From an uncultured Pirellulaceae bacterium (lineage in GTDB: Bacteria > Planctomycetota > Planctomycetia > Pirellulales > Pirellulaceae): a stretch of DNA of 64,000 nucleotides. Shown here piece after piece: positions 16,454 through 19,568 of this stretch. Both the position numbers and the translations under genes were made by a program. The DNA lies in contig CAYZHQ010000012.1 of the NCBI GenBank assembly GCA_964477385.1, forward strand, positions 21,180-85,179, given 5' to 3'. The first letter of the stretch is position 1. Every line of letters starts with the position of its first letter. The notes under the pieces are model-generated. The model saw nothing but the letters and a program-made list of their open reading frames with translations. It had not been told where the DNA came from and searched no databases.

Positions 16454-16558
16454 TTTAGCAATAAGCGATAACTAAGTGTCGGGTGCCTTTTGTGCGAAGC
16501 ACCCGAAGGACGAGTTCCTCGCAAAAGGTACCCGTCACTTTTCTGTCGCACGATCCTT
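16454..16558. repeat. 105-bp palindromic dispersed repeat (REP/MITE-like), copy 1
   Basis: 97/105 identical to 22902-23006 by hand alignment. Internal inverted repeat AAGTGTCGGGT[G]CCTTTTG / CAAAAGGTACCCG[T]CACTT. Confidence 0.9.
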
Positions 16559-16979
16559 AGCCGACGCTCCATTGTTCCTGAAACCACTTCACGCGCACAG
16601 CGCGCGTGGCGTTGTGGTTCGTGGCGGGGTCGAATTTCTCGTTTTTCAAGAATGACAGAAATGCGCTAGCAGGCACTTCGGCATGCTGAGCGACAACGTC
16701 CACGAATTCACTTTCCGGCTTCCAGTCGTACAGGACTCGGTTTTCGCGTTCAAACCAATTGTCAAGATACTCCGCATTGGCTGTGCTGGTGACGACAAAG
16801 TCGCATTGCTTTTTGCACAGAAAAAGTAGCAATTTCGAAGCCAAAGCGCGGGTTTCCGCCGCATCCCCGCTACGCGAAGCCGAAGCGATATTCCAGATGC
16901 TGATGAAGCCATCTGAATCGACTTCTTCGCTGGGAATGGAAATTTTCTGCGGTTCCGAAGCTGGCTCAGCCATCGACAT
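16557..16979 (-). CDS. Hypothetical protein (140 aa)
   Basis: Clean ORF with protein-like composition, AGGTAG purine tract upstream, downstream of the DUF3748 gene. Confidence 0.75.
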   Translation of the reverse strand: MSMAEPASEPQKISIPSEEVDSDGFISIWNIASASRSGDAAETRALASKLLLFLCKKQCDFVVTSTANAEYLDNWFERENRVLYDWKPESEFVDVVAQHAEVPASAFLSFLKNEKFDPATNHNATRAVRVKWFQEQWSVG

Positions 16980-17024: not shown

Positions 17025-18386
17025 TTAGACCCGCGCAACAGCTTTTCGGCTAGTGGAGATGACAAAGATTTGGTTACTGACTCGGCCGTTGGCTTGCTGT
17101 TGGGGACGAAGGTAGGCGATCTGTTGCCCATTTGGTGCAAACACACAGGCCAGCGGTGAAGGTGCAAAACAGGCCGGTTGAGGCGTGGTCAGGCGATGCG
17201 TTTGGCCCGTCGCGGCATCGGTTATGCAAACGCTGCCATCCATCACGTGGGCCAACCAACGGCCATCCGGTGACCAGGAAAAAGCGGAAGCGATGGGCGT
17301 CGGATTGCAGGTTAGTTGCCGGAGTTCGCCACCCGCCGGGGAGACTGTCCATAACTGCACGACGCCCTGGAGGTCTCGCTTGAGCAGAGCGATCAAGCGG
17401 CCATCGGGGGAACTGCGGAGCCAGTGCCGAGGGCCTGCGATTCCAGGGTATCGATGTTGCGAAGTAAACGTCAGACGCCGCGAGGTGATCGCTGGCGGGA
17501 CGGCCGGGCGTGTGGTGAGCGTCCCGGCGAGCAGTTCGATCCCGCCCCGCGTCATGGCGCGAGGGTCGCTGGGTAAGTCGACCATAAAGGCTTCCGCAAT
17601 CGTTTGGCCGTCGGCCGTTCGCACGTCTCCTTGGTAAGCGATCGCCCGGCGTTGGTGCGTGCCATCTTGACGATGGTAACCATCGATACCGATCCACGCA
17701 TCACTGTAAGCACGACTGATTTCATCCGAGCCAGGTGTTGGGTCGGCAACCGTACGCGTGACCAATACGCTCCAGTGCGTCCCGCTGTGATTGCGAGGAT
17801 GCGTGCGAGGAACGAGGACAGGCCCCGGTTCTGGCAGGCTGACGGCAATGTTGCGTTGATCGGGGTCGTGCGGTGGCGAGCCAGGTGCGGCGTCGAACTG
17901 CGCCAATAGAGCATCGTGGTAGGTGCAGCTGATCCACTGCCCGTCGCCACTAAAGGTGTGCAGGTGCGTCCCTCCACGAAGCGCTCCCGGTGTGAAGGGC
18001 GCGACCAATTGACGGGCATCCAAGGGCTTGCACCGGAGCGGCTTCTGGTGGAGGTCAAGGACCACGCCGCGGCGATGCGTAGCAGAGTAGGACCAATCGC
18101 GTGTCGGCTGCTCGGGCCCCTGAATGAAGACCACACGGTTGTCGACAGGACTGGCGGTAACGACTCCAACCTGTGCGTCTCGCTGAGCCTGATGCAAGAT
18201 TTCCACTCGCCCCGTTGGGACGTGTATCCGCTCGATACGCGGACTGTCGAAGACGGTTCCCGCAGGATCACTCCGCACGTCGTAGACAATCCATTGGCTG
18301 TCGTGAAGCCAGCAGCCGCTATTCGTGAGAATGTGATTCGTCGGAACGCGACTGAGCTGGCGTTCGTGGTTATGCGGAATCGCCAA
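17025..18386 (-). CDS. DUF3748/YidR-like TolB-type beta-propeller protein
   Basis: HILTN..W..DSQWIVYDVR, PFTPGALRGGTHLHTFSGDG, PRHWLRSSPDG. TTG start inferred from an upstream GGAG. Confidence 0.85.
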   Translation of the reverse strand: MAIPHNHERQLSRVPTNHILTNSGCWLHDSQWIVYDVRSDPAGTVFDSPRIERIHVPTGRVEILHQAQRDAQVGVVTASPVDNRVVFIQGPEQPTRDWSYSATHRRGVVLDLHQKPLRCKPLDARQLVAPFTPGALRGGTHLHTFSGDGQWISCTYHDALLAQFDAAPGSPPHDPDQRNIAVSLPEPGPVLVPRTHPRNHSGTHWSVLVTRTVADPTPGSDEISRAYSDAWIGIDGYHRQDGTHQRRAIAYQGDVRTADGQTIAEAFMVDLPSDPRAMTRGGIELLAGTLTTRPAVPPAITSRRLTFTSQHRYPGIAGPRHWLRSSPDGRLIALLKRDLQGVVQLWTVSPAGGELRQLTCNPTPIASAFSWSPDGRWLAHVMDGSVCITDAATGQTHRLTTPQPACFAPSPLACVFAPNGQQIAYLRPQQQANGRVSNQIFVISTSRKAVARV

Positions 18387-18455
18387 CGCAATTTCTCTCC
18401 CGCGTGAACACCCCCAACTGCGCCCCTCGCGAAGGGTTATGAAGTACAACGGCGC

Positions 18456-19382
18456 TTAGTTTGACGTCGGCTGGGCTGTCAACGATGCGGCGAGCGATTC
18501 AACCGCTGCACCGGCCTGGTAATCGAATGCTAACTCGATCGGCATCCCAGCGGCAGCCTCAAACGGAGTTTCAAGTGGCAAGACCATGCATTGGTTGGGC
18601 CAAGTGATGGCCCGCTGTGCTTGCAGGTCAACGGTGATCACGTTCTGGGTAACAAACCGGATGGCGTTGCAGGTTCCCGCACGTTGGGTCGTGAGCGGTT
18701 GCCGTGCCTGAAAGACCAGCGGAATCGTTTGGTCATAGGAAACGTTGGCGTAAGGCCAGAGGTCGGCCAGCTCGAGCGTGCGCGGCTGTTCCAGTAATGG
18801 AGCTTGGAAGAGCGGCACCGGAGCCAGGTACCCGGCAAAGTTGAAATCGTGCTGGACCGGCTGAGCCATCAGGATGGAGGCTTCGGGCAAGAACATTGGT
18901 AGCGGTCCACCAACGGATGTTGTGTAGTTGCGTTTGAATGCCGCGATCACCTGCGCTTGTTTTTCACGCAACAACGCAACATGCAGCATTTCGCAAACCA
19001 CAACGTCGACCGGGCGTGTGGGGATGTAGGTCGCTGCGTCGGCAGCGACGACCTCGATGTTGGACGCCAGGCGGTTGCTGGAGACAAAGCGTTTCGCGTG
19101 TCGAACCAGTTCAGGGTTGCGTTCAATGCAGGTCACCTTGGCTCCCCGTCGGGCGGCGAAGGAGGAGAGGATTCCGGTGCCCCCGCCAAGTTCCAAGACG
19201 TGCATCCCAGGTTGGACGACTAATTCAATGGCTTCGCGGAAAGCACCGACCCGATCCTCGTCTTGAAGCATGTTGTAGTGGTAAAGCAGCGGGATGTACT
19301 GCCCGAGAGTCCGCTCCTCCGAGGAGGGTTCGACGGCCGACGGTCGTTCGGTCGTCGCGTGATCGGTTTGAGTGGAATGCAT
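18456..19382 (-). CDS. SAM-dependent methyltransferase with PRMT-like architecture
   Basis: HYNMLQDEDR, VLELGGGTGILS, VDVVVCEMLHVALLRE, and C-terminal TWPNQ..LPL. Confidence 0.85.
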   Translation of the reverse strand: MHSTQTDHATTERPSAVEPSSEERTLGQYIPLLYHYNMLQDEDRVGAFREAIELVVQPGMHVLELGGGTGILSSFAARRGAKVTCIERNPELVRHAKRFVSSNRLASNIEVVAADAATYIPTRPVDVVVCEMLHVALLREKQAQVIAAFKRNYTTSVGGPLPMFLPEASILMAQPVQHDFNFAGYLAPVPLFQAPLLEQPRTLELADLWPYANVSYDQTIPLVFQARQPLTTQRAGTCNAIRFVTQNVITVDLQAQRAITWPNQCMVLPLETPFEAAAGMPIELAFDYQAGAAVESLAASLTAQPTSN

Positions 19383-19541
19383 AGAGGGGTTTCGCTCAGG
19401 CGTTGGTCGGGTCGGGACTCGCCGTCCCAACTACTCGTCATTCAGGCCTCACCCTAGGAAGTCTGAGGAGATCAGCTCAAGAGCGATTTCAAGTAACTGC
19501 GGGGGGCTTGAGGTCACCTGTCGCCAGGATCGGAAATGCTC

Positions 19542-19568
19542 AAAAAAAAGCCCCTCCAACTTTGGAGG
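19542..19568 (-). terminator. Possible intrinsic terminator
   Basis: Minus strand reads CCTCCA-AAGT-TGGAGG-GGC-T8. Confidence 0.35.

Follow-up and report, generated by a model that had tools for sequence, protein, structure and literature searches.

A compact PRMT-fold methyltransferase gene of a Pirellulaceae bacterium and its possible tie to the flagellum

The methyltransferase gene and its surroundings

The window, by which we mean the whole stretch of 64,000 nucleotides analysed here from a contig of an uncultured Pirellulaceae bacterium, carries on its minus strand the gene of a methyltransferase with a predicted PRMT-type fold (P0001, 18456..19382). The minus-strand translation of this interval is an open reading frame of 308 residues closed by a stop codon, and its genome has no second copy of the gene. 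The protein would gain 16 residues if translation began at an in-frame TTG at 19430, but the ATG at 19382 is the more probable start. Its homologues and the surrounding genes likewise point to the Pirellulaceae. An earlier note on this DNA, made from the letters alone, had described the frame together with four motifs, HYNMLQDEDR (residues 35-44), VLELGGGTGILS (residues 62-73), VDVVVCEMLHVALLRE and ITWPNQ (residues 259-264), and all of these are found in the translation. Scans with the Pfam and NCBIfam models assign to the protein a generic SAM-binding domain only, with all NCBIfam matches far below their cut-offs. The Pfam model PRMT_C gave no match to the protein, and its C-terminal half, used alone as a query, matched no PDB sequence.

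Two genes lie downstream in the same orientation: a DUF3748 (YidR-like) gene with a Pfam match, encoding a β-propeller protein (17025..18449, minus strand), and a gene from the list of open reading frames that encodes a 140-residue hypothetical protein without a Pfam match (16557..16979, minus strand). The earlier note had remarked on the shared orientation. The three genes are indeed co-oriented here, but a homologue of the DUF3748 gene was found in none of 90 fetched loci, same-genus genomes included, and the YidR-like protein was rejected as a partner on this ground. In only two of the 90 loci (L015 and L057) is a homologue of the 140-residue protein, with about 60% identity, encoded near the methyltransferase, at a distance of about 3.6 kb. 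In most loci the context consists of unrelated housekeeping genes, and the methyltransferase behaves as a stand-alone gene. About 40 of 80 metagenome loci belong to one proteobacterial clade, in which the gene sits in a housekeeping region. In a set of 80 loci, 10 have GGDEF/EAL genes as neighbours, roughly the number expected from their abundance by our estimate.

Comparison of planctomycete loci brought out a sigma-70-type promoter candidate upstream of the gene (TTGAGC, an 18-base spacer and TAGGGT; 19451..19489, minus strand), with a short conserved element upstream of it; a strict promoter scan did not report this candidate. Of 56 planctomycete loci, 40 have a sigma-70-type site upstream, compared with 5.6 on average after shuffling and none on the reverse strand, and in the window's own lineage the gene is putatively read from such a housekeeping promoter. 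The 18-base spacer of the candidate is kept in about 27 related planctomycete loci, in many of which AATC occurs as a short element further upstream, and the conserved element is possibly the site of a regulator. Immediately upstream of the promoter candidate, a hairpin scan gave a weak terminator-like hairpin with a T run (19553..19568, minus strand), one of seven such hairpins in the region, where shuffled sequences yield 4.9 on average.

Fold, conserved residues and relation to the arginine methyltransferases

The best PDB sequence matches of the protein are all protein arginine methyltransferases (PRMTs), with Trypanosoma PRMT7 at the top (7e-11, and 8e-19 with a profile). When a profile of 62 sequences that includes distant relatives is used, mouse PRMT7 is reached at 9e-42 and PRMT9 at 6e-36. 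The AlphaFold model, built from 120 homologues (pLDDT 89.2, pTM 0.84), predicts a PRMT-type β-barrel at about residues 163-305 (18468..18896, minus strand); the C-terminal half is all-β in this model, as the earlier note had expected from a β-rich domain. The Foldseek matches listed are exclusively PRMTs, with a TM score of about 0.7 over about 300-345 columns. Structural re-alignment of the predicted model against PRMT6 gives a Z score of 24.9 and an r.m.s. deviation of 2.7 for 275 residues over 21-308, and the deviations from the aligned PRMTs over the same stretch range from 2.7 to 2.9. Among 48,161 representative chains searched, PRMTs take all of the first 15 ranks (Z 24.9-19.5), and the first match of another kind is a Rossmann-only methyltransferase (Z 13.2). 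All solved two-domain structures of this fold that were retrieved are arginine methyltransferases. The comparison with PRMT structures had been put forward as the means of refuting the original reading; as far as the AlphaFold model tells, the barrel is there and the reading is not refuted. The protein is almost certainly a PRMT homologue.

The accessible part of PMC8399567 gives the Rossmann fold, the barrel, the helical arm and the THW region as PRMT hallmarks, and these were used for comparison. Motif I of the Rossmann domain, the double-E loop and the Trp of the THW-type loop are present in the sequence, and the barrel is predicted by the model. The model has no arm: no helix is predicted between residues 157 and 293, so the helical dimerisation arm is probably missing. 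A short β-hairpin is predicted at the position of the arm (about residues 179-193, within 18468..18896, minus strand). The matched PRMT chains are about 40-80 residues longer than the part of them that aligns.

The N-terminal part carries the H35-x-x-M38-L39-x-D41-x-x-R44 helix, counterpart of the PRMT SAM-binding helix (19251..19280, minus strand), and the SAM-binding motif I, assigned from sequence and domain matches (VLELGGGTGILS, residues 62-73; 19164..19199, minus strand). They are followed by the double-E loop E131-E140 (VDVVVCEMLHVALLRE; 18963..18992, minus strand), whose two Glu, nine residues apart as first noticed, are invariant in every set of homologues: 120/120 close, 41/41 cross-phylum and 80/80 metagenome sequences. 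H35, M38, R44, H134 and W261 are likewise invariant in the 41 cross-phylum homologues; the first four are kept in 80/80 metagenome homologues and W261 in 79/80, the single exception being a gapped row. G66 and G68 are invariant, E87, the acidic residue after strand 2, is present in 40 of the 41 cross-phylum homologues, Q142 is as invariant as H134, and R139 nearly so; M38, R44, H134 and Q142 are also without exception in the 120 close homologues, and H134 and R139 are specific to the family. Profile alignment places the pair E131/E140 at the double-E loop of PRMT7 and PRMT9 and matches W261 to the Trp of the THW-type loop; the Glu pair is in register with PRMT3 as well. At the level of sequence, the conservation of these motifs is far above chance.

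W261 belongs to the loop I259-T-W261-P-N-Q264 (18591..18608, minus strand), the equivalent of the THW loop, in which the Trp alone is conserved. TWPNQ had been proposed as a THW loop. This holds for the Trp, but TWPNQ is not a THW motif, because the residue before W261 is never His (Asp in 24, Thr in 8, Glu in 7 and another residue in 2 of 41 homologues). In type I PRMTs, an N-terminal YxxY motif precedes the H-x-x-M-L helix; the corresponding region of the family reads L-G-Q-[FY]-I-P-x-x-Y-H and holds no YxxY. Both marks of the type I enzymes, the THW His and YxxY, are missing from the family.

The motif set had been assigned to the PRMT1 type. All top sequence and structure matches bear out the relationship to PRMTs, but the protein is nearer to PRMT7 and PRMT9. 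These eukaryotic enzymes (PDB 4c4a/6ogn, 4m36/4m38/5eku and 8rbk) are the best sequence and profile matches of the family and have in common with it the Rossmann and barrel layout, the H-x-x-M-L-x-D-x-x-R helix and the two Glu nine residues apart; PRMT9, too, has a Trp loop without His. Unlike them, the family members are bacterial, stand-alone and apparently flagellum-linked, consist of one module of about 290 residues without a helical arm, and carry, in or just after the double-E loop, His, Arg and Gln at positions that are acidic or small in mouse PRMT7. The type I PRMTs (PRMT1, 2, 3, 6, 8 and CARM1) tie for the best structural scores (Z 24-25, about 260-277 residues aligned) and have the same Glu spacing as the family, whereas the family lacks their YxxY, THW His and helical dimer arm and is about 20% identical to them.

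Searches retrieved 678 relatives with the window protein as query and 1,422 with the family profile. Of 104 loci confirmed in the GTDB collection, 79 were kept; they come from Planctomycetota, Pseudomonadota, Bacillota, Actinomycetota, Spirochaetota, Myxococcota, Verrucomicrobiota and Thermodesulfobacteriota. The distribution is patchy: a gene was found in 8 of 41 relatives, and in one of the eight it is of a different PRMT class. A quick tree of 61 rows, from which near-duplicates were omitted, groups the sequences mostly by phylum with several breaks, and its base is an unresolved polytomy from which neither a donor nor an order of transfer can be read. As a class, bacterial PRMT-like enzymes are already known; a bacterial protein of this fold is as such ordinary, and the new part is the consistent flagellar tie.

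Association of the gene with flagella

The Flagellin_N domain (PF00669) was matched in all of 50 carrier genomes tested, which were taken from the 79 loci; five of them gave weak matches only (E 1e-11 to 1e-13), which are probably due to FlgL. Within single groups, a flagellin domain is found in 17/17 carriers of the window's own order, Pirellulales, versus 139/221 background genomes (P 3e-4), in 7/7 carriers of the Polyangiaceae, six of them newly found, versus 52/121 (P 2e-3), and in 3/3 carriers of the class of a Gaiellaceae carrier, presumably Thermoleophilia, one of them newly found, versus 24/251 (P 8e-4); these are hypergeometric P values with genomes counted singly, and related genomes inflate all three. 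Counted by genus, the Pirellulales test gives P 0.045, and at least 2 of the 17 carriers recur among the 50. The carrier from the Verrucomicrobiota has flagella too, where the background is 38/151. Most flagellated genomes are without the methyltransferase gene. Since the genomes of the Polyangiaceae carriers span 3.5-10.8 Mb, genome size does not explain the co-occurrence. The Polyangiaceae and the class of the Gaiellaceae carrier are usually regarded as non-flagellated; flagellin-type genes were seen in the 52 and 24 background genomes counted above.

The co-occurrence extends to other motility proteins. MCP and CheW were found in 5/5 planctomycete carriers, and CheR in 17/17 carriers versus 185/221 background genomes. 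Flagellin is therefore inseparable as a correlate from the other motility proteins, and whether flagella or chemotaxis is the real correlate cannot be told apart in these samples.

The position of the gene points in the same direction in some Bacillaceae, where all four carriers among 49 genomes of one family have it between flagellin and flaG-fliD; the four form one clade in the tree. Three of these loci have the order flagellin, methyltransferase and flaG-fliD-fliS; so does the fourth, in which a homing-endonuclease gene separates flagellin from the methyltransferase. Of 17 regions mapped in Bacillaceae that do not carry the gene, 5 have in this slot genes of the Maf type (PF01973), of the nonulosonate pathway or for glycosyltransferases, the others having endonucleases, an IS element, an Ig-domain protein, an unassigned gene or nothing, so that homing endonucleases and IS elements also gather there. 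On a separate branch, the methyltransferase of a Defluviitaleaceae member (L051) lies back to back with fliD-flaG-fliS. In the window, the gene is not encoded beside flagellin. As a side observation, many flagellin frames of the Bacillaceae family are cut short by a stop that falls at one common place close to the C-terminus (L091, L099, L103, L106, L108, L045 and L053), and after several of them LAGLIDADG endonuclease genes follow on the opposite strand. Introns in flagellin genes are known in bacilli, and the early stops and endonuclease genes would fit such introns.

Regulatory sites add a third line of evidence. In five related actinobacterial loci, the gene is directly preceded by CTCAA-N15/16-GCCGAT, with spacers of unrelated sequence, which we take, by its likeness to the consensus, to be a sigma-28-type promoter. 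With a search pattern composed after the sites had been seen, each of these genomes holds 6-12 such sites, against 0-1 for the reversed control, and in 5/5 one of them is at the methyltransferase. In one locus (L076:5959-6857), the family member is broken over three reading frames, through decay into a pseudogene or assembly errors, and the promoter motif is retained. Flagellin, flaG-fliD and chemoreceptor genes have the motif in front of them as well. The genes downstream of 20 other sites inspected include fliD (4), chemoreceptors (2), HD-domain response regulators (2), a sigma factor (3), a GGDEF protein and MreB; the motif stands before an RpoD-like sigma factor in three genomes and before MreB in one (L157, L161, L173 and L172). 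A family-wide sigma-28 promoter was rejected: top-scoring sites occur in 5/96 loci, all of one actinobacterial group, and in 0/73 metagenome loci, and an exact site at the gene was absent from five other carriers. In the Polyangiaceae, sigma-54-type boxes were found upstream in 7/7 loci (scores 12.7-14.9, four of them strong) and at 5/20 flagellins, and a sigma-54 site was present in five of the 73 metagenome loci, versus one on the reverse strand. This evidence is weaker, because sigma-54 has many targets.

Candidate substrates

Co-occurrence, position and promoter, three lines of genomic evidence, suggest the flagellum as the place of action, and we consider it quite likely that the methyltransferase is functionally tied to flagellar motility. 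By analogy with the PRMTs, it is probably an active guanidino N-methyltransferase. The reading that we put first, with less than an even chance of being right, is that of an arginine N-methyltransferase acting on a protein of the flagellar system, with flagellin as the first candidate. Flagellin is favoured because in some lineages the gene sits in a flagellin-modification slot or has the promoter type of flagellin, but that flagellin is itself the arginine substrate is a doubtful proposition. The earlier note had left the substrate open between a protein, a peptide and a metabolite. In its most specific form the proposal is speculative: a minimal PRMT without the arm, specialised in methylating arginine in flagellin, would have spread across flagellated bacteria from at least eight phyla.

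Roles of single residues are known for PRMTs, such as the binding of SAM and that of the guanidinium by the Glu pair. By this analogy, SAM would bind beneath the H35-R44 helix, at motif I, E87 and D115; the guanidinium of the substrate would be gripped and oriented by E131 and E140, and W261 would shut the pocket from the barrel side. The substrate would be a protein of the flagellar system that is cytoplasmic or met before export; flagellin would be modified while still unpolymerised in the cytoplasm. The product would more likely be monomethyl-arginine, since among solved enzymes the monomethylating type III enzyme PRMT7 comes nearest by profile and the YxxY of type I is absent; however, H134 replaces an acidic residue, Asp, in the double-E loop of the mammalian enzyme. 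As a guess, the modified site may be one of the arginines conserved in all flagellins examined, in which case the enzyme could function after transfer between phyla.

The nearest functional analogue of the proposed role is FliB. According to the accessible parts of the papers, FliB methylates flagellin lysines (PMC8598068, PMC10450907) and is encoded beside the flagellin that it modifies (PMC8598068). It differs in being, as given there, a [4Fe-4S] enzyme acting on Lys, whereas the family protein has the predicted PRMT fold and Arg as its predicted target. For methylation of the arginine guanidino group in bacteria, what is accessible of PMC11705231 and PMC12637814 presents SznE and StzE as an established case, SznE acting in streptozotocin synthesis. 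SznE and its kin, compared here by their descriptions, are encoded in biosynthetic operons, and their substrates are free Arg or small peptides; the family has no biosynthetic neighbours. McmA of methanogens was dropped as a PRMT-like precedent, as it is not so described in the accessible part of PMC7058361. A literature search, mostly outside subscription journals, found no paper on the family or on arginine methylation of flagellin.

The alternative that survives best, though rather unlikely in our view, keeps the enzyme at the flagellum and changes the acceptor: a re-tuned PRMT pocket would methylate Lys, His, Gln or an N-terminus. The data on co-occurrence, position and promoter fit it equally, the flagellin methylation known from the available text of PMC8598068 is on Lys, and the family-specific H134 and Q142, the near-invariant R139 and the acidic residue or Thr before W261 could reflect such a change. 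An Arg signature is also missing from the carrier flagellins: among 74 flagellins of 240-330 residues, with 20 regions per group representing non-carriers, no gain of Arg is shared across lineages, and actinobacterial carrier flagellins have fewer Arg (12.9 versus 16.5). Against a non-Arg acceptor stand the Glu pair, invariant at the PRMT spacing in every set, the exclusive presence of arginine methyltransferases among the solved two-domain structures, and PRMT9, which also does without the THW His.

It is unlikely that the protein is a general or unrelated protein arginine methyltransferase whose flagellar tie reflects the lifestyle or ancestry of motile cells. Such an enzyme would suit the mostly unrelated gene contexts, the housekeeping-type promoter of planctomycetes and the 80 metagenome loci, whose fetched flanks (up to 6 kb, many shorter) contain no flagellin or hag-region gene. 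Methylation of Lys and Arg in bacteria is, in the portion of 10.1101/2023.06.29.546327 at hand, common and understudied, with few known writers. It fits less well that a non-flagellated carrier was found in none of the samples, including the groups in which only 10%, 25% or 43% of the genomes have flagellin, that genome size offers no explanation, and that the sigma-28 sites were retained though their spacers diverged.

A small guanidino or amidino substrate, either free arginine as for SznE or the acetamidino group of a nonulosonate sugar bound for flagellin, is improbable. SznE and StzE are described as bacterial enzymes that methylate such a group, the accessible part of PMC3417536 describes a bacterial radiation of PRMT-like peptide methylases, sisters of the PRMTs in secondary-metabolite operons, and other strains have glycosylation genes in the Bacillaceae slot. 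However, no biosynthetic neighbour recurs among about 220 neighbour proteins scanned, on which ground a role in a biosynthetic cluster was rejected. The sugar amidine in particular is disfavoured because this genome (97.9% complete) and five other carriers are without a full-length NeuB, which is present in only 4/10 carriers, and Maf was found in 1/5.

That the protein is an RNA methyltransferase, as the source name 'predicted RNA methylase' of several homologues and weak Pfam and NCBIfam matches to RNA methylase models confined to the Rossmann part might suggest, or is inactive, is highly improbable: RNA methylase structures align to the Rossmann part alone (Z at most 13.2 versus 24.9), the NCBIfam matches stay below their cut-offs, and the pocket residues are strictly conserved.

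Should a dedicated flagellin arginine methyltransferase be confirmed, bacteria would have a PRMT that acts on a defined protein of its own cell, and it would offer a simple model of the ancestor of PRMT7 and PRMT9. With flagellin as the target, methyl-arginine would be a new filament modification, used in place of FliB-type Lys methylation or Maf-type glycosylation, which could alter assembly, surface properties or phage binding. An armless PRMT, if active, would test the need of the dimer arm for catalysis. PRMT-fold proteins are common in prokaryotes, mostly without a clue to their substrate, and the family has one via the flagellum. Its culturable hosts, Rossellomorea vietnamensis, Novipirellula and Mariprofundus species, allow direct experiment.

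Beyond the family lie uncharacterised prokaryotic relatives named 'predicted RNA methylase', which we take to be COG4076. They have the E-x8-E-x-Q loop and the barrel in common with the family and form similar clusters in bacteria, archaea and phages, but mostly have Asp at position 134, where the family has His, and many bear N- or C-terminal fusions. Look-alike clusters of about 280-310 residues in the ESM Atlas are dominated by Thorarchaeota, Methanobacteriota and tailed phages, with TPR-fused forms in cyanobacteria. Fused forms of the family itself, of 586-2000 residues, were not found at E 1e-30, which is weak evidence, and viral contigs gave one marginal match of 29 residues only. Eight distant relatives (P0260, P0272, P0274, P0278, P0280, P0283, P0285 and P0295) carry an N-terminal extension of 90-140 residues without a Pfam match at 1e-5; its resemblance to a winged helix-turn-helix suggests fusions of a regulator and a methyltransferase. 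In P0349 and P0328, the methyltransferase is fused to a Cys-containing domain that looks radical-SAM-like on reading its sequence, and P0251 has two methyltransferase modules in tandem, as in animal PRMT7. A relative in the same family (G013) encodes at L086:5863-6900 a different PRMT, closer to type I, that has a true THW motif and is matched by Pfam PRMT_C, and at least two PRMT-like classes are therefore present in these planctomycetes.
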